DNA of 64,000 nucleotides from Escherichia phage EI-SP-GF: sequence record OR992645.1. The stretch is one strand, 5' to 3'. Below are positions 1 to 48,455 of the stretch, one piece after another (within the stretch, counting starts at the first letter, position 1; the number at the start of each line of letters is the position of its first letter). The notes below the pieces were generated by a model. The model did not search any database and was not told where the DNA came from. It saw only the letters and a list, made by a program, of their open reading frames with translations. The position numbers were made by a program, and so were the translations under genes.

Positions 1-92
1 GACATGCAGCTGCCTGAAAATGGCGGGGCAAGACTAGCGACCTTGCCCGAACATGAACGACACAATTCGAATGGGAGCAGATAGACTATCTG

Positions 93-1181
93 ATGTCTCG
101 TCTGCGATCTCAGTCAAAGTATCCATCAAGAATGGTTATCAGCTGTAACCCCGATTCAGAACACATGCTTGCCAAACTGGTTAGATGGTGGTTGGACGAT
201 GAAGGGTATCCAGATCCGGAGAAATGCGGTAAGAAAAGATATTTTATCCGACGCGACGGTGAATTTATCTGGGGAGACTCTAAAGAAGAGTTGATAGAGA
301 AATACACCACGGTTAACGGACTTGGCGTAGAGATCAAGCCAAGACCGTTGTCATTCTCGTTCATAGGCGCAACAATATTCGATAATCCTGTCTGTTTGAG
401 AGACAACCCAGAATACCTTGCTTTCCTCGAAGGTCTACCAGAGCTGGAAAAAGCTCAGCTTCTCCATGGTAACTGGTTTGCAAAGCCTGAGGGTGCAAAC
501 TATTTTCAAAGATCTTTCCTTCGTGATGCCGATAGAGTACCTCTTGGGTCAGTATCTTGCAGGGCATGGGATAAGGCAGGAACCGAGAGAACTTCCGGTA
601 ATAAATTTCCTGACTTTACTGCCAGTATTAAGGTAAGTAAAGATAGCGACGGCTTTTATTACCTGTCCGGTGATTATTGTCCTGAGAACGTGGATGACGG
701 GAGGTATTCCACAGGTCTGGAAGGCAAGTTCTGTAAAAAGGCTGGTGAACGAGATGTGATCATCAGGAAACAGGCGCAGTTCGATGGTGATGATTGCATA
801 ATCGTCTTCTCTGTGGACCCAGGGCAGGCAGGTAAGAGTGAGTTCTTAACCTCCTCCAGATCCTTGCTTGCCGAAGGGTTCAGGGTTGAAGAAGACCCAA
901 TGCCTTCCAACAAGTCTAAACTGACAAGGTTCTCACCTTTTGCCAATCTTGCCCAACAAGGAATGGTGAGGATTGTAAAATCCAGTTTCCATCCTGATAC
1001 TCTGGAAGCATTTCTGACTGAACTTGAAAAATTCAACGGGGAAAGATCAACATTTAACAGAAAAGACGACTGGGCCGACTGTGTAGCTTCTGCGATTAAT
1101 TTCCTAGAGAAAGAGGAGGTAGCACTTCCTTGTGTGATTCCATCAATCTCATCACCTTCTATGTTCAAGCGTTTTATCTAA
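93..1181 (+). CDS. terminase large subunit, C-terminal (nuclease-domain) portion; ATPase N-terminus not contained in this ORF
   Basis: 362-aa ORF directly upstream of the portal gene; product has no Walker A motif; a frame-1 ORF entering from the window start stops at 82-84 while this frame opens at 57, so the gene looks split or frameshifted. Confidence 0.5.
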   Translation: MSRLRSQSKYPSRMVISCNPDSEHMLAKLVRWWLDDEGYPDPEKCGKKRYFIRRDGEFIWGDSKEELIEKYTTVNGLGVEIKPRPLSFSFIGATIFDNPVCLRDNPEYLAFLEGLPELEKAQLLHGNWFAKPEGANYFQRSFLRDADRVPLGSVSCRAWDKAGTERTSGNKFPDFTASIKVSKDSDGFYYLSGDYCPENVDDGRYSTGLEGKFCKKAGERDVIIRKQAQFDGDDCIIVFSVDPGQAGKSEFLTSSRSLLAEGFRVEEDPMPSNKSKLTRFSPFANLAQQGMVRIVKSSFHPDTLEAFLTELEKFNGERSTFNRKDDWADCVASAINFLEKEEVALPCVIPSISSPSMFKRFI

Positions 1182-1184
1182 GTG

Positions 1185-1213
1185 TTGCCAATCTTAATTA
1201 GATGTGGTACAAT
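1185..1213 (+). promoter_or_regulatory. sigma70-like promoter (TTGCCA-N17-TACAAT, TGn extended -10) upstream of portal gene
   Basis: -35 ttgcca 1185-1190, 17-nt spacer ending tgg, -10 tacaat 1208-1213; member of a motif repeated 7 times in the structural block. Confidence 0.4.
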
Positions 1214-1231
1214 AAAGTAATTGGAGATACT

Positions 1232-1257
1232 AGCCCTCTGACGAGGGCTATTTTGTT
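1232..1257 (+). terminator. hairpin plus T-tract after terminase gene (lies in portal 5' leader)
   Basis: agccctc-tgac-gagggct stem-loop followed by attttgtt. Confidence 0.45.
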
Positions 1258-1281
1258 ATACTGTTTTGAGGGGTAAAGCTT

Positions 1282-2838
1282 GTGTCCAAAAAGAACCGCA
1301 GGAAACACAACGCCACAGCCAAAACTGTGAATAAATCTGGGAACGCAGGCGCACCAACTCATAATGTTCGTATGAGTGAGATCGGTTCTGGCGCACTTTC
1401 CCAAATTATGGCAGAATCGCAATCTATGATGGTTGAGGAATTGCGTTGGCCTCAGCTGATTGCCACAGTGGAGACTATGAAATGTGATTCCACAGTTGCT
1501 ACTGCCTTAGATACAAAATATGTTTTCATCACGAAAGCATTCAATGATTTTAAGATCCTTTATAATGTTAAAAGTGAAGACTCTAAGAAAGCTGCCGAGC
1601 TTATAGAGTATTCTTTGCGTAATTTGGCAAACCAACAAACTCTTCGAGATATTGCAAGAAGCGCAGCTACCTTTAACGAGTATGGTTTTTCACTGTTTGA
1701 GAAAGTATACCGCAGAGAGAAAGAAGGTAAATATGCCGGGATGCTTCTTATCGATAAAATTGCATTCCGACCTCAGGCCAGCCTGTCCAGATCAGAGCCG
1801 TTTGTTTTTGATAAGAATAGCAGAACACTGACAGGTATTTATCAGTCACCTAATGCATTTCTAAACACTCAGAATGCACGCTGGGCTGGACCTCTTGCTG
1901 CAATGCCTTCAAAAGGCTTTAATGAGCCTGAAATTTTCATCCCTGCTAAAAAGCTTATGCTCATGACCCTGTCAGGAACAGAATCTAACCCTGCAGGTGT
2001 GTCACCTATGATAGGTTGCTACAGATCTTTCCGTGAGAAAGTTCTGATTGAAAACCTTGAGGTTGTTGGCTGTTCCAAAGACCTTGGTGGTGTGCTTGAG
2101 CTGAAAATTCCTTCCAATATTTTGAACAAGGCCAGCATTGACCCGAATTCAATGGAAGGGAGAATGGTTGCAGACCTTATGCTTGACGCAGCAAACGCCC
2201 ATAGTGGTGAGCAAAGTTTCTTTATACTTCCGTCTGATAGAGATAAGTCTGGTAAAGAGCTTTACTCCATGACCCTGAAGGGGGTTGACGGTATGGGTAA
2301 GCAGTATTCCACTAAAGATTTGATTGATGCCCGTAAAAAGGCGATTCTTGACCGTTTCGGTGCTGGCTTTATTAACCTAGGTAACGATAACGTTGGATCC
2401 TTCTCTCTGTCTGAGTCAAAACAGTCTATCCATGGTCATTTTGTTCAGCGTGATATAGATATTATCACTGAGGCCTTCAATAAGGATCTTATTCCACAGC
2501 TTCTGGCATTGAATGGTATCATCCTTGAAGATGATGATATGCCTAAACTGAAACCTGGTCTGATTGAAGAAGTGGATATGGAGAGCTTCTCCAAGTTTGT
2601 CCAGAGGATCGGTGCTGTAGGTTACTTGCCAAAAACTCCTGCAGTAATTAATAAGATTCTTGAAGTAGGCGGGTTTGATGAAAGATTTGACGAGGACATG
2701 GATCAGGAAGAGCTGATGAAGCTCTTGGGCCAGGACATCAGTAGAGCTGGTGATGGAATGGCTGCAGGATCCACTGGCAACGGTACTTCTAAGATATCAT
2801 CAACCAGAGATAATTCCATATCCAACATGGAAAATTAA
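1282..2838 (+). CDS. portal protein
   Basis: 518-aa ORF, GTG start with gagggg RBS; size and position between terminase and scaffold/capsid genes. Confidence 0.6.
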   Translation: MSKKNRRKHNATAKTVNKSGNAGAPTHNVRMSEIGSGALSQIMAESQSMMVEELRWPQLIATVETMKCDSTVATALDTKYVFITKAFNDFKILYNVKSEDSKKAAELIEYSLRNLANQQTLRDIARSAATFNEYGFSLFEKVYRREKEGKYAGMLLIDKIAFRPQASLSRSEPFVFDKNSRTLTGIYQSPNAFLNTQNARWAGPLAAMPSKGFNEPEIFIPAKKLMLMTLSGTESNPAGVSPMIGCYRSFREKVLIENLEVVGCSKDLGGVLELKIPSNILNKASIDPNSMEGRMVADLMLDAANAHSGEQSFFILPSDRDKSGKELYSMTLKGVDGMGKQYSTKDLIDARKKAILDRFGAGFINLGNDNVGSFSLSESKQSIHGHFVQRDIDIITEAFNKDLIPQLLALNGIILEDDDMPKLKPGLIEEVDMESFSKFVQRIGAVGYLPKTPAVINKILEVGGFDERFDEDMDQEELMKLLGQDISRAGDGMAAGSTGNGTSKISSTRDNSISNMEN

Positions 2839-2905
2839 AAATTATCAACACAGGGGGTTGCAAAACCTCCTTTGGCGTGATAAAATAATCCACATGGGGA
2901 ATAAG

Positions 2906-3325
2906 ATGCCACAGGAAGAAATGATTTCCTACGAAATCATCTACGAGCCTGACACTAAAGATGCTCACGGTGAGTGGATGAGTAAAGACACCATCAAAAA
3001 GGCTAAAGATAACTGGGACGCAGCATACGCTGCAGGCCTAGTTTCTGAAAACCTTTTCCACTTGACCTCTACAGATGCTTTCACTATTGAAAAGACGTGG
3101 ATTCAAGAAGAGTTTGATGTTGTAGTAATTGGCACTGAGCAGGTCATCAAGGCTGGCTCTTGGGTTGCTAAAGTTAAATACAATAATCCTGAATTATGGG
3201 AAGCTAAGAAGGCTGGCATTGTTGGTGGCCTAAGCATTCAGGCAACAGGTAATGTTGATGAAGAAACTGGTGAAATTACCAACGTAAACTTCGGGATCAG
3301 TGTTGTAGAAGAGGGCAATGAATAA
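2906..3325 (+). CDS. head morphogenesis protein (possible prohead protease or scaffold-associated, XkdF-like guess)
   Basis: ORF in track begins 2750 but overlaps portal; in-frame ATG at 2906 (or 2894) after portal stop with GGGGA RBS; function inferred from position only. Confidence 0.35.
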   Translation: MPQEEMISYEIIYEPDTKDAHGEWMSKDTIKKAKDNWDAAYAAGLVSENLFHLTSTDAFTIEKTWIQEEFDVVVIGTEQVIKAGSWVAKVKYNNPELWEAKKAGIVGGLSIQATGNVDEETGEITNVNFGISVVEEGNE

Positions 3326-4302
3326 TGTCTGAAAAAACGATTACTATTAAAGAGAAGGGGATTGCCCTGTGCCATAAGGCGCAAGGCTATAGCGCTAACA
3401 ACAGACCTGTATCTCTTTTGATGAAGAGTGATCTTAAGCCTGAGCAGTTAACAGACGATATTGTTAAGGCACTTCGCCAAGTTACTGTGGAGCTTAGTTT
3501 TGAAGAATACCTGCGTCGTTTCTTCGATATGTGGTATGATGATGCTAAAGCACTTGCACACATGCTTGGTTTTGAGATTGAAGAGGAGGCTTGGGCTAAA
3601 GAGCATCCCGATTGGGAATGGGCGCAAGCTGACGCAGAGTCTTGTATTGCATGGCTGGAAGAGCGTTGTGATAACGTGACCATTCATAAGGCTGCAAAAG
3701 AAGGCAAGCAGCTTAGTGTGGTAGATCAGTACAGCCTGTTAAAAACACAACAGATTTTTGAACAAGTAACCGCTGATCTCTTCGATAAAGAAGGGAACCT
3801 GATCAAGGCGGTACAGGAACCTACTGAGGTAGATAAAACTACCGAGGTGGATGATGTTGCAAAATCCGCAAATACCGAGGAGAATCCGGTGGACGTAACC
3901 AAAACTAAAGAGTATCTGGATCTGCTGAAGCAAGTAGAAGAGCTGAAAGCAACCCAGAGTAAAGCTGAAGAGATCATCAAGGCCCAGGTTGAAGTTGAAA
4001 AAGCTAAAATGCTGACTAAGGCTCAAGCTTTAAGCTTTGTTGGTGAAGAAGATCACGCAACCCTGGTTGACTTCATGCTGGAAAAAGCTAACGAACCTAT
4101 CGTAGCTATGCTGGAGAAAGCTCAAGCAAAAATTGAAGAGCTGGAAGCAGAGGTGCATAAAACTAAAGAAGAGTTTGCCACCACTGAACATGGTAATGAT
4201 GGCGAACCTGTTGTGGATGATATTGCAAAATCCGCAGAAGAAATTCTTGCTGAAAACGTTGCAAAAGCACTTGCTCGTGCACGTGCAGAATCTAACAAAT
4301 AA
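3325..4302 (+). CDS. scaffolding protein
   Basis: 325 aa, very acidic and coiled-coil rich (EELKATQSKAEEIIKAQVEVEKAK...), located immediately upstream of capsid genes, start overlaps previous stop (TAATG). Confidence 0.55.
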   Translation: MSEKTITIKEKGIALCHKAQGYSANNRPVSLLMKSDLKPEQLTDDIVKALRQVTVELSFEEYLRRFFDMWYDDAKALAHMLGFEIEEEAWAKEHPDWEWAQADAESCIAWLEERCDNVTIHKAAKEGKQLSVVDQYSLLKTQQIFEQVTADLFDKEGNLIKAVQEPTEVDKTTEVDDVAKSANTEENPVDVTKTKEYLDLLKQVEELKATQSKAEEIIKAQVEVEKAKMLTKAQALSFVGEEDHATLVDFMLEKANEPIVAMLEKAQAKIEELEAEVHKTKEEFATTEHGNDGEPVVDDIAKSAEEILAENVAKALARARAESNK

Positions 4303-4322
4303 GACATTAACGGGGGAAATAA

Positions 4323-4712
4323 ATGATTACCGCTCAATATTCTGATATCGTGCTCGGCAAAGTTGATTCTAGCGATGCTGGCTACAATTTTAAAGAGATG
4401 GAAATTACACTGACAGAGCACCATCATGCTGGTACTGTTGTAACAAAAACTGGCACTATCGCTAACGATGATGGCTCAGATGTTTATGGTGTTCTTGTAG
4501 ACCGAGCTCTGGTAAAAGATGCAGGAAAAGTTCATCTTGCTGAGCCTCTGCAAACAGGTCAGAAATATAAACTGGTTGTTGCAGTTCACGGTGTTACCTT
4601 TGCAAAAGATAAGCTGCTGGGGTCTAACGGTGAAGCAGCTAAGCAGGCTGTCCTTGAAAAGCTGGAAGCTCTGGGTAACAAAGTCCACGTCCAGACTCTT
4701 GGTGAAGAGTAA
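4323..4712 (+). CDS. small capsid accessory protein (possible decoration protein)
   Basis: 129-aa ORF with GGGGGA RBS between scaffold and major capsid genes; assignment positional. Confidence 0.3.
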   Translation: MITAQYSDIVLGKVDSSDAGYNFKEMEITLTEHHHAGTVVTKTGTIANDDGSDVYGVLVDRALVKDAGKVHLAEPLQTGQKYKLVVAVHGVTFAKDKLLGSNGEAAKQAVLEKLEALGNKVHVQTLGEE

Positions 4713-4759
4713 GCCCTAAATTGTTCGGGAAATATTTAAGTTTTACTTTGGAGAAATAA

Positions 4760-5767
4760 ATGATTACTCGTAAAGATGAATTTGGCATTGTTGATTTAGG
4801 TGCTACTCTGGAACTTGTTCCGCGCCAATTCCGACTGATTACTGGTATGGATCTGTTCGAAACCCGTCTCGGCACCTCAACGATTGCTCAGATCGAGCGT
4901 GTTGATGAAGTTGTAACCGACATTCCGGCACGCCGTCGTGGTGGTGAGCGTAACTACGTTGGTAGTGAACGTGCCCAGGTTAAAAACCTGAACATCCCGT
5001 TCTTCCCTCTGGACAAAGGCATCACTGCCGCAGATGTTCAGAACTTCCGTCGTTACTTCACCCCTGATGCTCCGAAAACTGTTCAGGACGTAGTAACCCG
5101 CGTTGTTCGCCGTATCCGTGTTTCTCATGAAGCACTGCGTGAGAAAGCACTGTTCCAGGCTATTCTGGGTAAATCCTATGCACCTGGTGACACCACCTGT
5201 CAGTATGACTACTACACTCTGTGGGGTGTGTCTCAGAAGTCTGTTGAGATCGACCCTGCAAAAGCAGATCAGGATCCTATGGAGGTTCTGGAAGAAGCTC
5301 GTCTGCACATCGCACTGCAAGCTGGTGATAACGCAGCTGGCTATCGTATTGTAGCTCTGTGCTCACCAGAGTTCTTCAGTGCTATTACCCATCACCCGCT
5401 GGTAGAACTGGCATACACCTATTACGGCTCTGCTCAGGAACCTCTGCGTCGCCGTCTGGGTGCTGGCGGTCAAGACAGCGTATACCGTGTGTTTGAACAT
5501 AAAGGTATCACCTTTATCGAAGATATTTCTGGCAATATTCCTAAGAAAGAGGCTCGCATCCTGCCGATGGGTATTGATCAGATGTTCCAGCTGCACTTTG
5601 CTCCGGCAGACGATGTTAACGAAGCAAACACTCCAGCACAGGAACTGTACATGTGGTACAAACACTCTGCATACCTGCGTGAAGAGAAGATTGAATCTGA
5701 AACTTCCATGCTGGCAGTTAACACCCGTCCAGAGCTGGTTGTTAAAGCAACTCTGAAAGGTGAATAA
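4760..5767 (+). CDS. major capsid protein
   Basis: 335-aa ORF after scaffold, strong RBS, strongly biased codon usage (CGT/CTG/GGT/AAA rich) typical of highly expressed genes, followed by strong terminator. Confidence 0.65.
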   Translation: MITRKDEFGIVDLGATLELVPRQFRLITGMDLFETRLGTSTIAQIERVDEVVTDIPARRRGGERNYVGSERAQVKNLNIPFFPLDKGITAADVQNFRRYFTPDAPKTVQDVVTRVVRRIRVSHEALREKALFQAILGKSYAPGDTTCQYDYYTLWGVSQKSVEIDPAKADQDPMEVLEEARLHIALQAGDNAAGYRIVALCSPEFFSAITHHPLVELAYTYYGSAQEPLRRRLGAGGQDSVYRVFEHKGITFIEDISGNIPKKEARILPMGIDQMFQLHFAPADDVNEANTPAQELYMWYKHSAYLREEKIESETSMLAVNTRPELVVKATLKGE

Positions 5768-5791
5768 TCACTAAGGTGATTCATCCCATAT

Positions 5792-5824
5792 GGGGAGGGG
5801 GTTCTCCCCCTCCCCTTTTTATTT
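5792..5824 (+). terminator. rho-independent terminator after major capsid gene
   Basis: ggggaggggg-ttct-ccccctcccc perfect 10-bp stem followed by tttttattt. Confidence 0.75.
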
Positions 5825-5848
5825 ATTAGGGTTTAACAGGAGTGTCCC

Positions 5849-6676
5849 GTGAATAGAGCCGTGTATCCAGTCGAGTATGATCCTCTATTAAGAGTTTTCA
5901 ACAATCAGTTAAGTTTTTATCAATTTTTAGCACAATACAATCCAGAAATCAATGTTGGTTTATCAGCCCTACTGCCACCAACAGAATTCGTTATTGGCAG
6001 TGTCCACTATCCGTGCAGAACGATTGTAGACTTCTTCGAGAAGATTGCAAAACACACAGGCCTGCCAATTGATACTGGTATTTCAACTATCCGTATGGGT
6101 GTTATTCTTCTGTTCTTCACAGAGAACCTTGATGAAAGCACTTTAACACTGCAAAGCGGTGATGTCAATATCACACTCACCCCGTCAGTGTTTAAAGAGG
6201 TAGATGCGGCTTTCCAAGTTTCCGTGGCAGAGGGCCATCTATGGGACCCTGTAGGGATGCCTAAAAAAGTGACCATAAACGATGAGCAATGCAACATTGT
6301 TTATGAAGAAGATACCCAAACTTTCACCATTGAGTGGCCTAAGAAACGTTCTCAGGTTGTAAATCTTGGACTGGTGTCTACGATAGCTCCACCGCCTGAA
6401 CCAGAGCCGGAGCCGCCTGTAGGTCCTACTGAACCTGGTGGTGACGGTGAAGTTACTGTAGCAGATCCGCAAGATGTGACTGTATCCTCTTCCTCATTTG
6501 TAGCCGTTGAGAATAAGGATGAAATCCTTAAACAGGCCGCAGCTCTTAACAACGAAGATGACAAAAGTGGTTCAAAAGATGCACTCCAAACCTTCGCTAA
6601 AGAGTACGGTGTTACCTTAAGTAAGGCAAAAACTTTCCAAAATATGATGAAAGATTTTGAGGCTGCACTGGCATAA
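5849..6676 (+). CDS. hypothetical virion protein with Pro/Glu-rich linker
   Basis: 275-aa ORF, GTG start with AGGAG RBS; contains PPPEPEPEPPVGPTEPGGDGE linker. Confidence 0.5.
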   Translation: MNRAVYPVEYDPLLRVFNNQLSFYQFLAQYNPEINVGLSALLPPTEFVIGSVHYPCRTIVDFFEKIAKHTGLPIDTGISTIRMGVILLFFTENLDESTLTLQSGDVNITLTPSVFKEVDAAFQVSVAEGHLWDPVGMPKKVTINDEQCNIVYEEDTQTFTIEWPKKRSQVVNLGLVSTIAPPPEPEPEPPVGPTEPGGDGEVTVADPQDVTVSSSSFVAVENKDEILKQAAALNNEDDKSGSKDALQTFAKEYGVTLSKAKTFQNMMKDFEAALA

Positions 6677-10841: not shown

Positions 10842-10882
10842 ATGGTTCTGACACACGTTCTTGAATTGCTTGAAAGGTTAAA

Positions 10883-16469: not shown

Positions 16470-17146
16470 TGGCAATAAACAGGAAAGATGCTGCTGTAAG
16501 ATCCTTTATAGAAAAAATAATGAGGGACTACCACACCAGTATTAGAGCCAGAGTTGTCAGTGTAGATTACAGTATCCCCTCTGCAGCCGTGCAGCCAATA
16601 GCCGAAACCATGTTTGACGATGGGGATGTAGAAAGGTACCCTCTTATCTATGATGTTCCAATCCAGGTGATGTCTGCAAACGGTGGGAAGGCAAGGTTAA
16701 CGCTTCCTATTAAAGCTGGTGATGTTGTAGGGCTGCAATTTTCAGAGAGAAATGAAAACAATAACGATGACCAGCAAACCCACGGCCTGTTTCCAGGATG
16801 GGCTATCACCTCTGTTCATTCAGACTCGAATGCTTTGCAGATCGATCCTGATAATGTAGAGTTATGGAATGATAGGGTTTATTTTAAGCTAACACCTTCT
16901 GGTGATTTTGAGCTTCAAACACCTGGTGGGACATTACGGTGCGACAGTAGCGGGGAGTTTTCTTTCACCAACGGGGCTGCCAATTTACGAGCTGCTGTGG
17001 ATGGAAATATCAGAATGAATGGTGCCACAATAGACCCATCAGGTAGAATTATAACGGCTGCTGGTGTGGATTTGGACTCATTCTATGCAGAATATAAAGG
17101 TCATACCCACTCTTGCCCTGATGGCGAGACAAGTGGACCGCACTAA
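16469..17146 (+). CDS. baseplate central spike protein (P2 gpV-like)
   Basis: 225 aa ending ...YKGHTHSCPDGETSGPH, resembling the His-containing apex motif (HTH..PGD.GGTTG.P) of gpV-type spikes. Confidence 0.65.
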   Translation: MAINRKDAAVRSFIEKIMRDYHTSIRARVVSVDYSIPSAAVQPIAETMFDDGDVERYPLIYDVPIQVMSANGGKARLTLPIKAGDVVGLQFSERNENNNDDQQTHGLFPGWAITSVHSDSNALQIDPDNVELWNDRVYFKLTPSGDFELQTPGGTLRCDSSGEFSFTNGAANLRAAVDGNIRMNGATIDPSGRIITAAGVDLDSFYAEYKGHTHSCPDGETSGPH

Positions 17147-17158
17147 TAGAGGGCTTGA

Positions 17159-17875
17159 ATGGCTACGCTTTATAGTGATATATTGATGGACCCACAGACA
17201 GGTGATTTGGCGATAGACAAAGGTCTTGAGTTGATAGATTCAAACCAAGTAAGTCTGCGCCAGCGCCTGTGGATGAGGTTTAATACATGGAAGGGGAGCT
17301 GGTACTTTGATGAGTTGTTTGGCTTCCCTTATATGGACTTTCTCAGTAAGAAGGTCATGAAGACTGTTCTTGATAACAAGATTATGGAAGTGGCAAGACA
17401 AGAGCCAGATGTGCTAAACATCATAAACTTCCAGTCTACTATGGATCGAAGATCGAGAACATACCAAGCGTTCTTTGAGGTTGTTACCAAGGAGAACGAG
17501 ATTGTAAGGCTGGCTTTCGTAGGTCTTGATCAGTTTACCTACCCACAGCCTGATGACGGGGCAACCTCTCTTTGTGATGATGAAGGTTGGATTAAGTGGG
17601 CTAATAAACTGTACTACCTGATCAACTTCAGATTGCCTAGAACTGGAGATGCTACGTGGTGGAACCAGTATGCTGGTCCTGAGATGGAAAACCCGATTCC
17701 TGTAGGTTCTCTGTTGACTCAGAATAAAGATCTGTTGATGACTGATGCAGAACAAACCATTAACCGCAATACCTGGACGCTTGCTCCAGATGAGCGCGAA
17801 TATTCTGGTGTTATTGCTACCTCTAATGATGAGGCTATTGCCAACCAGTCTGGTCGTGCTATCGATGTTAACTAA
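17159..17875 (+). CDS. baseplate wedge protein (gpW/gp25-like N-terminal domain)
   Basis: N-terminal region GDLAIDKGLELIDSNQVSLRQRLWMRFNTWKGSWYFDELFGFPY...EPDVLNI fits gpW/gp25 pattern. Confidence 0.5.
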   Translation: MATLYSDILMDPQTGDLAIDKGLELIDSNQVSLRQRLWMRFNTWKGSWYFDELFGFPYMDFLSKKVMKTVLDNKIMEVARQEPDVLNIINFQSTMDRRSRTYQAFFEVVTKENEIVRLAFVGLDQFTYPQPDDGATSLCDDEGWIKWANKLYYLINFRLPRTGDATWWNQYAGPEMENPIPVGSLLTQNKDLLMTDAEQTINRNTWTLAPDEREYSGVIATSNDEAIANQSGRAIDVN

Positions 17876-17884
17876 GGAGAAATC

Positions 17885-18553
17885 ATGGCTGTAGCTTATC
17901 CTACAATACCAATCCCAGATCTTGAAGATGCAGAAACAGTCTTGAGTGATGACTTCTTGGTTGTCAACCAGACTGACGGGACAAGAAAGGCTAAGATTGA
18001 TGATGTTGTCAATGATCTTAGCATTACTAAAATAGTTTATTTCACAGAGGGCGGTTATCTTAAGAGCAAGAAGGATTTTGCTTATGATCCGGAAACTAAG
18101 CGCTACTACACATGGAATGGAGATTATCCTAAAATAATCCTCCCAGATTCTACTGTAGAGGGTGCCGGAGGTGTGTCTGCAAAAGCATGGTCTGTTTTTG
18201 GAGAGCTTGCTGCAACTTCTTCAGGTAGGATAGTTGATTACGGCTCTATTGGTGGTCAACTTGACATGGATCTTGACGTTGCAGACACGTTTAAAGTTCG
18301 GCTCACTTCAAACACTACAATCTCTTTTGAAAATCAAACAGAAGGGCTCGACGGAGTGGCAAGAACTATAACTGTATGCATAACGCAGACCTCGGGTGGT
18401 AACAAAGTTTATTGGCCTGACAATGTTAAATGGGCCTACGGGAGAGATCCTATCCTAACATTTACAGCTGGTGCAACAGACATTTTCAAGTTGGAAACAT
18501 ATGATAATGGACTAACTTGGTACGGGGCACTGATCATCGCAGGAGCTATCTAA
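17885..18553 (+). CDS. tail fibre/tailspike N-terminal anchor-domain protein
   Basis: 222 aa; N-terminus (DDFLVVNQTDGTRKAKIDDVV...FTEGGYL...DFAYDPE) is paralogous to the N-terminus of the 1268-aa fibre at 21188. Confidence 0.55.
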   Translation: MAVAYPTIPIPDLEDAETVLSDDFLVVNQTDGTRKAKIDDVVNDLSITKIVYFTEGGYLKSKKDFAYDPETKRYYTWNGDYPKIILPDSTVEGAGGVSAKAWSVFGELAATSSGRIVDYGSIGGQLDMDLDVADTFKVRLTSNTTISFENQTEGLDGVARTITVCITQTSGGNKVYWPDNVKWAYGRDPILTFTAGATDIFKLETYDNGLTWYGALIIAGAI

Positions 18554-46502: not shown

Positions 46503-46883
46503 TTATGACGATTTGACGTAGCGCTCTGACAAAGCTGGGAAGCCAAAAGCAGCACCTACACTACCGTACGCTATCCACCATTGAAGTTCATCGTGACACC
46601 ATTTTCCGATCAGAAAGGTGCTGGGGTAGCGAGTCAGTATTTTGGCATAAGCTTTAGGGTCTGCATCCTCTGGGATAATGATGCTTGGAACATCTTTGTT
46701 ATGACCACAGCAGCAGTTTAGAGTTTTCAATCCTGCCGCCCATAGACTCATGATAGGTTTAGCCATGCACTTATCAAGGCACACACGTTTTTTGCCGTCA
46801 CGGAGCTTTTTAGGCACATCAACGATAACATTTGGATGCTTGGCACCTTTCACTTTCCAATTATAAGATTTACACTTGCACAT
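46503..46883 (-). CDS. Cys-rich putative zinc-binding protein
   Basis: 126 aa with CKCK, CLDKC and CCCGH clusters; GGAGA RBS. Confidence 0.5.
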   Translation of the reverse strand: MCKCKSYNWKVKGAKHPNVIVDVPKKLRDGKKRVCLDKCMAKPIMSLWAAGLKTLNCCCGHNKDVPSIIIPEDADPKAYAKILTRYPSTFLIGKWCHDELQWWIAYGSVGAAFGFPALSERYVKSS

Positions 46884-46913
46884 TTAGTCAGTCTCCATCT
46901 AGAAAGCCATACT

Positions 46914-47084
46914 TTACTTAAAGTCTTTGTCACCTATTACGATTGCACGAATCCACTCATTGTGATGCTCAATGGATGTAAGGTGTAACATAATGCAGTG
47001 ATTGTCATTACCGAACACGGCTCGATAAGCCTTAGCAGCACCATGATATAACTTCCACATCACGTAATGGTATCTTCGTTTCAT
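46914..47084 (-). CDS. small hypothetical protein (56 aa, below ORF-track cutoff)
   Basis: ATG at 47084 overlaps the TGA stop of the HAD gene (ATGA coupling); translated by hand. Confidence 0.3.
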   Translation of the reverse strand: MKRRYHYVMWKLYHGAAKAYRAVFGNDNHCIMLHLTSIEHHNEWIRAIVIGDKDFK

Positions 47085-47554
47085 GGTTCTTTCTCCGGTT
47101 CAGGATCTGGGTAATCTTCAATAATAAAGGGCCATCCGTTACGCTTAGCGTCAGACTTATACTCAATCTCCTTCATTGCAAACTCTAACTGATTCTTAGC
47201 CGGAATGCAAGCTGGAGAGTCATCAACCCAGATGTCTGGGTAGATATCAAACTGCGCCAGATAAGCGGCCTTCTGAACGCCTCCAGTATAAAACACTCCA
47301 ACATCGAGCTCCTTGCGCCAGTATTCGATGTCCACGTTGTCTTGAGTGATGAATCGGGAAGTCACAAGATAGACTGTCCACCCTTCCTTCTTCAGGTCCT
47401 TAATAAGGCGGGAGAAGATGAAAGGGCTCGCATTAAACGTTCCATCAAAGTCAATAGCAATGATGTGTGTGCCGTGACGAGTCTCATATGGATTACTCGT
47501 GGTGAGATTGCTGTAGTTAAAAGGTACTTCTTCTCCGCAGTAGCTGTAGTCCAT
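47081..47554 (-). CDS. HAD-superfamily phosphatase (nucleotidase-like)
   Basis: motif I IIAIDFDGTF (DxDGT), motif II VYLVTSR, motif IV DIWVDDSP; ATG 47554 preferred over GTG 47560. Confidence 0.65.
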   Translation of the reverse strand: MDYSYCGEEVPFNYSNLTTSNPYETRHGTHIIAIDFDGTFNASPFIFSRLIKDLKKEGWTVYLVTSRFITQDNVDIEYWRKELDVGVFYTGGVQKAAYLAQFDIYPDIWVDDSPACIPAKNQLEFAMKEIEYKSDAKRNGWPFIIEDYPDPEPEKEP

Positions 47555-47556
47555 AT

Positions 47557-47832
47557 TCACACCTTCTCGTTGATAAATTTACGGGCGGTTTGGTGAGTTG
47601 TTTCTGCTGTCTTCAGAATGATATTAATTTTATTGTCAAGATCATTCATCTCAGCAGTTAATTCAGGAATCTCTCCAGCATGCATGGTGAAATCATACAT
47701 AGACATACCCAGGATCTCATTGATGCGGCGGTTGCATTCTGCAGCACGCTGGTTCATTTTCCAAGCTAACACCAAAGCCTCCTGCGTAGCCTCCAGTGCA
47801 AAGTCTAATACGTCAGCTTCTTCTTTCGTCAT
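47557..47832 (-). CDS. hypothetical protein
   Basis: 91-aa ORF, tightly packed in leftward block. Confidence 0.45.
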   Translation of the reverse strand: MTKEEADVLDFALEATQEALVLAWKMNQRAAECNRRINEILGMSMYDFTMHAGEIPELTAEMNDLDNKINIILKTAETTHQTARKFINEKV

Positions 47833-47888
47833 CTCAGTCTCTCTTGTTGTATTGTTGATAGGTGTATGAATGCTTTATAACTCACCTT

Positions 47889-48455
47889 TTATTCAAACTG
47901 CAATAGCAAATCCACTACCGCGCTAGGTCTGTCAACAAATTCCCCAGGCCCACATGCCCACAGAGGGTATCCGTCTACATACCGCCAAATCCAACCTGCA
48001 GTGTGGAGTTCTAGCAGGGCAGTACCGTCTTTACTGTCAACCACTCTTTCCCACAGTGTTGGGCAGCGAAGCTTGAGGATCGGATCCCCTCCCTTATACC
48101 CATCCATGTAGATACCCATCGCAAAGTTTAACATCATCTTTTTGTGCACTGACCTCTTACTGAGGGTGCTCATCACTTCCTCTTTGTGAATGTTTGTAAG
48201 CTTCTCCTTGGCTACCCGCAGATCGTTGCAGCCATTGTTCAGAAGATCTTCCAGACACTTGATCCGAAGGTCGTGAATATCTTTGTCGTGCACCGTTGGT
48301 ACAGGGTCGTAGCGATAGAGCACCGTTGATACAAGGTTGCTCGGGTGTGGGTCTGACAGCAACCCATAACCCCAATACTCCTCTGTATCTGAAAGGACAA
48401 GACACCCAATGTCTCTGTCAAGCTTTCCTGTGTTGTAAGCCACATTGACCGCCAT
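47889..48455 (-). CDS. hypothetical protein
   Basis: 188-aa ORF with GGAG RBS. Confidence 0.5.
   Translation of the reverse strand: MAVNVAYNTGKLDRDIGCLVLSDTEEYWGYGLLSDPHPSNLVSTVLYRYDPVPTVHDKDIHDLRIKCLEDLLNNGCNDLRVAKEKLTNIHKEEVMSTLSKRSVHKKMMLNFAMGIYMDGYKGGDPILKLRCPTLWERVVDSKDGTALLELHTAGWIWRYVDGYPLWACGPGEFVDRPSAVVDLLLQFE

Follow-up and report, generated by a model that had tools for sequence, protein, structure and literature searches.

A td-like group I intron very probably interrupts the large terminase gene of an rV5-like Escherichia phage

The window, which is the whole 64,000-nucleotide stretch of Escherichia phage EI-SP-GF DNA analysed here, very probably opens within a td-like self-splicing group I intron, 59 nt ahead of its 3′ splice site, and this intron interrupts the gene of the Vequintavirus terminase large subunit (TerL). 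In the proposed mechanism, the pre-mRNA would fold into a ribozyme core, and exon 1 (GAGGGU) would be cleaved behind its final U, the base in the U-G wobble of P1, through attack by an external guanosine. The released exon would in turn attack just after the terminal G at window position 59, and the joined exons would make up a 1548-nt ORF coding for a normal, one-piece TerL of 515 residues. This TerL intron is already known, as it is annotated in rV5, the type phage of the genus.

The main value of recognizing it here lies in annotation. Gene callers and many GenBank records, including those of phages magaca and SophiaRose, break TerL up into two or three ORFs named 'terminase large subunit', and taking the intron into account gives the correct, single 515-residue protein. 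TerL commonly serves as a phylogenetic marker and in the prediction of packaging strategies. The window would add to the examples of selfish group I introns located where an essential gene is most conserved, and phages that are otherwise near-identical differ in whether they carry the intron. This presence/absence pattern is textbook behaviour and is on record for rV5.

The truncated TerL gene and its relatives

Analyses of the left edge of the window indicated that the truncation of TerL reported by the first-pass annotation is real and not due to chance. ORF calling and a motif scan confirmed that the 362-residue ORF is devoid of a Walker A motif (pattern [AG]xxxxGK[ST]), and Walker B is missing from it as well. 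Frame 3, which is that of TerL, opens at position 57, after a TGA at 54-56, and frame 1 is open from base 1 up to a TAG at 82-84, which corresponds to 27 codons in the window; both of the previously reported boundaries are thus correct. The product read from position 57 matches Terminase_6N at profile positions 110-211 of 215 (31.8 bits), followed by Terminase_6C, and the window therefore harbours the second half of Terminase_6N together with Terminase_6C. The frame-1 stretch, 32 codons long in its magaca context, is no ATPase piece of the terminase in another frame. Its comparison with protein families gave no match and no terminase similarity. It is a chance-level ORF in non-coding intron RNA (P9/P9.2 region). 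The features that we assigned to this part of the window, all on the plus strand, are as follows.

1 to 59, plus strand: predicted 3′ end of the TerL group I intron (last 59 of 319 nt, magaca-type allele), based on identity with magaca, RF00028 and the td alignment
1 to 9, plus strand: last 2 nt of the GAGA loop and P9 3′ strand CAUGCAG, based on the Rfam alignment and the minimum-free-energy (MFE) fold
26 to 48, plus strand: predicted peripheral hairpin GGGCAAG-ACUAGCGAC-CUUGCCC, based on the MFE and centroid folds and on td homology
59, plus strand: predicted terminal guanosine (omega-G), with the 3′ splice site between 59 and 60, based on the in-phase boundary and on 9/9 alleles
60 to 1181, plus strand: TerL exon 2, 373 codons and a TAA, covering the terminal part of the ATPase domain (with motif III, SCNP) as well as the RNaseH-like nuclease domain, based on the frame, the splice model and Pfam
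93 to 1181, plus strand: 362-residue ORF with an ATG start, from ORF calling
376 to 377, plus strand: unoccupied second TerL intron site, in the ATA codon of ...GATIFDNP (GATI/FDNP), based on the comparison of the window with metagenomic contig L011
1231 to 1260, plus strand: terminator-like hairpin (1231-1250) and T-run after the TerL stop, with an equivalent Rho-independent terminator in the rV5 RefSeq record

Database searches placed the window in the genus Vequintavirus, as an rV5-like E. coli myovirus. Positions 46703-48002 of Escherichia phage magaca (MN850612, Vequintavirus) are 100% identical to window 1-1300. More than 100 further rV5-like records are at least 95% identical to the same segment, and approximately 119 records are at least 90% identical to it. 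Over 25 kb, the best megablast match reaches 95.9% identity, and no database record is identical to the window; a 40-mer from the variable region at 4395-4434 had no exact match in viral_contigs or genome_contigs.

Rfam searches of the window alone returned no match, neither for the whole window at the gathering threshold nor for positions 1-300 at E≤10, because the 59-nt remnant of the intron is too short. Relatives were therefore used. We read exon 1 and the intron core from genomes identical to the window over its first 1.3 kb, mainly from the magaca locus (L001, in which position 5001 corresponds to base 1 of the window). All allele states were supplied by six contigs with an identical head decoration protein, which are 95.7-98.7% identical over their main aligned segments.

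Identity with magaca remains at 100% over the first ~2.4 kb of the window and falls sharply from ~4400, in the region of the head decoration gene. A position-wise comparison of window 1-6300 with L001 gives 1276 mismatches over 6300 nt, a figure inflated by indels past ~4400, and gapped BLAST gives 97.8% identity. By these alignments, the window is a mosaic matched by no single database genome.

Predicted intron structure and spliced product

The Rfam family RF00028 (Intron_gpI) matched the magaca locus with 84 bits, for a gathering threshold of 50 (E 2.9e-20), over the complete model (1-253) and between L001 positions 4731 and 5009, the latter corresponding to window position 9; this match lies between the two TerL pieces. 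The same RF00028 match was found in SophiaRose and in L011. In the Rfam alignment, P1 is formed by GAGGGU/UA (the slash marks the splice site) and UAGCUCUC, with a U-G wobble at the last base of exon 1. The P9 hairpin CUGCAUG-GAGA-CAUGCAG, at L001 4992-5009 in that alignment, is reproduced in the MFE fold. The 340-nt region folds with a z-score of -5.3 relative to shuffled sequences, and P1, P3, P8, P9 and the last hairpin are all reproduced. We also inspected by eye a possible P10 pairing with exon 2, which revealed no convincing continuous helix; this pairing is weak or ambiguous.

The 3′ part of the intron is similar to that of the T4 td intron, with approximately 82% identity over 77 nt that encompass the P7 3′ strand, P9 and also the last hairpin; the alignment extends to the terminal G, with an offset of one base. 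Relative to the td hairpin GGGUAAG/CUUAUCU, 7/7 pairs are kept by compensatory changes, of which one is double (C-G to U-A) and two are single (G-C to G-U). The hairpin at window 26-48 lies at the position of what we take to be P9.2 of the td intron. The td intron differs in that it interrupts a thymidylate synthase gene and carries I-TevI (GIY-YIG), and its 5′ two-thirds cannot be aligned by blastn. Other matches were found elsewhere. Intron positions 130-319 (~190 nt) are 72.6% identical to unannotated stretches of phiKZ-like Pseudomonas jumbo phages (~277-280 kb), and shorter matches to the intron core were detected in Bacillus, Staphylococcus, Xanthomonas and Vibrio phages. These similarities suggest that the td-like intron lineage might be widely shared.

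In magaca, the 5′ splice site is predicted after GGT (L001 4740) and the 3′ splice site after the base equivalent to G59 of the window, which delimits a 319-nt intron preceded by a 426-nt exon 1. The insert opens with an in-frame TAA and contains 3-10 stops in every frame. Exon 1 of magaca codes for 142 residues, with Walker A (GAAGSGKS) and Walker B (MVCFDE) motifs. Based on the relatives, exon 1 of the window genome is expected to end in ...TTCGATGAGGGT / ...ATGGTTTGCTTCGATGAGGGT and to be followed by an intron 5′ end predicted to read TAATTTGTAGCTCTCG... The predicted spliced junction is GAGGGT/ACACAA, i.e. GAGGGT/ACACAATTC, giving MVCFDEG/TQFEW at the protein level, and the tryptic peptide of spliced TerL that spans the junction should be LNHQGLEYTMVCFDEGTQFEWEQIDYLMSR.

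Several features point to this register. Past the TGA at 54-56, G59 is the sole G that directly precedes a codon boundary in phase, and splicing after it yields ...FDEG/TQFEW..., as in the intron-less alleles. The last base of exon 1 is T in 9/9 intron-containing alleles and C in 4/4 intron-less ones, and the last base of the intron is G in 9/9; the first codons of exon 2 vary among intron-containing alleles. Alignments of intron-less genomes with the window do not begin until about positions 53-66. We also considered a register shifted by one base to the left (...GAGGG / GACACAA, which likewise codes for EGTQ), and we rejected it on the grounds that it breaks the rules of a U at -1 and a terminal G and fits the intron-less DNA less well.

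The 1548-nt ORF obtained by joining exon 1 to window 60-1181 has exactly the same length as the intron-less TerL genes of ECP2303 and C12, and its product shows 0/515 differences from that of the latter and 2 from that of the former. The TerL proteins of two metagenomic intron-less alleles are 515 residues long as well. Spliced TerL matches profile positions 2-211 of 215 of Terminase_6N in a single stretch across the junction (72.2 bits), and Terminase_6C with 27 bits. The motifs GAAGSGKS, MVCFDE and SCNP are found at residue 27, residues 136-141 and residues 170-173, respectively. The hallmarks of T4-type large terminases, an ATPase and an RNaseH-like nuclease in one polypeptide, are found together only on the spliced product. 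A PDB sequence search with spliced TerL returned nothing at E≤0.01. The intron is located one codon past Walker B, and such highly conserved sites are typical locations for selfish introns.

Altogether, the insert that splits TerL has the sequence characteristics of a canonical, td-like group I intron, with a core that scores above the RF00028 gathering threshold, a U-G wobble in P1, a terminal G and an ORF restored by excision. The first-pass annotation had suggested an insertion that could be an intron or intein-like. Its first option agrees with the RF00028 group I assignment, and the second does not, as the insert is not an in-frame ORF. From the features of the insert, we infer GTP-dependent self-splicing; our literature search found no direct splicing assay (e.g. 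by RT-PCR) for this TerL intron.

Intron forms and alternative explanations

The intron was found in 52 of the approximately 119 database records that are at least 90% identical to window 1-1300; 22 of the 52 harbour an ORF-less form of 319/320 nt and 30 a form of 883 nt. The latter, present in BASEL phages such as MaxBurger, in rV5_ev146 and in APECc02, shares the splice sites and the ribozyme core outside P8. It differs in P8, where another stem, GAATGTGT...ACACATTC, replaces the short hairpin AAGCG-GTTGTTGT-CGCTT, and its loop contains a 591-nt ORF coding for a 196-residue protein of the Endonuclease_7 family (PF02945). Because of this P8 insertion, the RF00028 score of the 883-nt form falls to 48.7 bits. 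The window stops short of P8, and the closest allele, that of magaca, contains no homing endonuclease ORF.

We consider it likely, from the sequence of the last 59 nt, that the unseen 5′ part of the intron corresponds to the 319-nt, ORF-less form, because the G at window position 55 is that of the magaca-type allele. The same splice sites would also be compatible with an unseen part of the 883-nt form and its endonuclease gene, which is unlikely but has a number of points in its favour: this form is the more frequent one in the records, it is almost the same as the window over the last 59 nt, and it is carried by rV5_ev146, which is 99.8% identical to window 1-1300. Nevertheless, position 55 is an A in the 8 other aligned intron alleles, including all five of the 883-nt forms, and the four records whose intron is 100% identical to that of magaca all harbour the 319-nt form. 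G55 can be deduced for naswa, naam and 'C2', with introns 100% identical to that of magaca.

We find each of the other explanations far less probable. TerL might be composed of two associating polypeptides, one running from exon 1 to the TAA at the start of a non-splicing insert and the other starting at ATG 93, similar to the split NrdA of Aeromonas phage Aeh1. The separate 142- and 362-residue 'terminase' ORFs of gene callers and of several GenBank records would fit this organization, and a non-splicing HNH insert was reported in another gene of phage CB7 (PMC7344957). It is nevertheless very improbable given the intact ribozyme core, well over the Rfam threshold, the conservation of U and G at the 5′ and 3′ splice sites in 9/9 alleles, and the phase-exact excision. 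Translation from ATG 93 would moreover lose 11 conserved residues (TQFEWEQIDYL), the sole Shine-Dalgarno-like sequence, GGGAG at 72-76, is 16 nt upstream of that codon, and the split would cut the ATPase fold right behind Walker B. The genuinely two-piece terminase of the first-pass annotation is unnecessary as well as unlikely, since exact excision gives an ORF colinear with those of the intron-less alleles.

Even more remote is a frameshift around window 50-95, whether due to sequencing or assembly errors or to programmed ribosomal frameshifting, as had also been envisaged. Two frames do overlap at 57-84, but between the coding pieces lie 319 nt (883 nt in some relatives) of structured RNA in which every frame contains stops, the frame-1 stretch does not resemble a terminase, and the insert recurs in 52 records; together with the RF00028 match and the exact restoration of the ORF, this led us to discard it. 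We give equally little credit to an intein or to TGA recoding. The only frame-3 stops in window 1-92 are indeed TGA codons (15-17 and 54-56), but the codon at 54-56 is TAA in 8/9 other aligned intron alleles, TGA being found in the window and magaca, and translation table 11 gives long ORFs over the remainder of the window. The region is a structured RNA that matches RF00028, opening with an in-frame TAA and with stops in each frame, rather than an in-frame Hint-domain ORF.

Junction variants, known introns and flanking regions

The intron-less alleles (L004, L005, L012 and L013) all have GGC/ACG at the junction, with CAG as the next codon in three of them and CAA in one. The intron-containing junction reads GGT/ACA CAA in seven of nine alleles, while the remaining two have GGT/ACA CAG and GGT/ACG CAG. 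C12 differs from the spliced ORF at 9 nucleotides, 3 of which are located at most 7 nt from the junction (window 60-68 region). This clustering of synonymous differences could reflect the requirement for U-G in P1, co-conversion or immunity of the endonuclease site.

A second TerL insert, of roughly 1 kb and with an HNH endonuclease gene, occupies, in rV5, SophiaRose and L011, the site left vacant in the window. That of L011 gives a weak RF00028 match (34.8 bits, L011 5763-6001). The exon flank of this second site is ACC AT/T in the intron-containing alleles vs ACA AT/A in the window. At least four allele states can thus be distinguished, namely intron-less, 319-nt and ORF-less, 883-nt with an Endo VII-type gene, and with a second, HNH-endonuclease intron. 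On a speculative note, to which we grant little probability, the TerL gene of Vequintavirus might be a polymorphic arena of mobile introns in which the element of the window competes between co-infecting phages rather than being a neutral passenger. The synonymous differences at the junction could then mark cleavage-resistant intron-less alleles and co-conversion tracts, and the unseen 5′ part of the intron could deviate from all of the catalogued forms.

The RefSeq record of rV5 (NC_011041) gives TerL (rv5_gp065, 'ORF64ABC') as three joined pieces, and the second of its introns carries the gene of an HNH endonuclease. Kropinski et al. 2013 (PMC3606486) devoted a section entitled 'Introns in terminase' to it and thanked D. 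Shub for placing the intron; the paper used BLASTX and such expert placement. The first TerL intron of rV5 is the same as that described here, with a length of 319 nt, 98.7% identity to the magaca allele, and a location after a 426-nt exon 1, at ...FDEG/TQF.... The differences are the second, HNH-endonuclease intron at the site corresponding to 376/377 of the window and a few point differences, e.g. an A at window position 55. The BASEL (Maffei et al. 2021) and rV5_ev records give TerL as two joined pieces that enclose a 'putative homing endonuclease'. Splicing of a TerL group I intron was demonstrated by RT-PCR in Pectobacterium phage CB7 (Certrevirus, Vequintavirinae; PMC7344957). That intron differs by carrying an HNH gene, and it shares the host gene and the intron class with the one described here. 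A group I intron also interrupts terL in Lactobacillus phage LL-H (Mikkonen & Alatossava 1995).

In magaca, TerL was called as a 142-residue ORF (L001 4315-4743) and a 362-residue ORF, about 350 nt apart. The preceding gene, magaca_89 (L001 4028-4315), is labelled 'putative large terminase subunit', but it is an o-spanin gene and is annotated as such in other records. An unusual tRNA of 98 nt (L001 2869-2966), labelled 'tRNA-OTHER' in magaca but 'tRNA-Stop(tta)' in SophiaRose, belongs to the tRNA cluster located upstream of TerL. Downstream of TerL, a promoter-like site (TTGCCA-17-TACAAT, with TG) and the terminator-like hairpin were detected within window 1185-1260, between TerL and the portal gene.

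Two observations concern the relatives of the window. Contig L008 harbours at 16535-18403 a 611-residue DUF723 ORF between the tail tube and tail assembly chaperone genes, which is absent at window ~10853-10861; it is likely to be a free-standing gene of the homing-endonuclease type. Lastly, the UNVERIFIED MG0656xx records ('Campylobacter phage' C12, C2, A14x and others) contain Vequintavirus genomes that hardly differ from those of rV5-like E. coli phages, and their Campylobacter jejuni host label looks doubtful.
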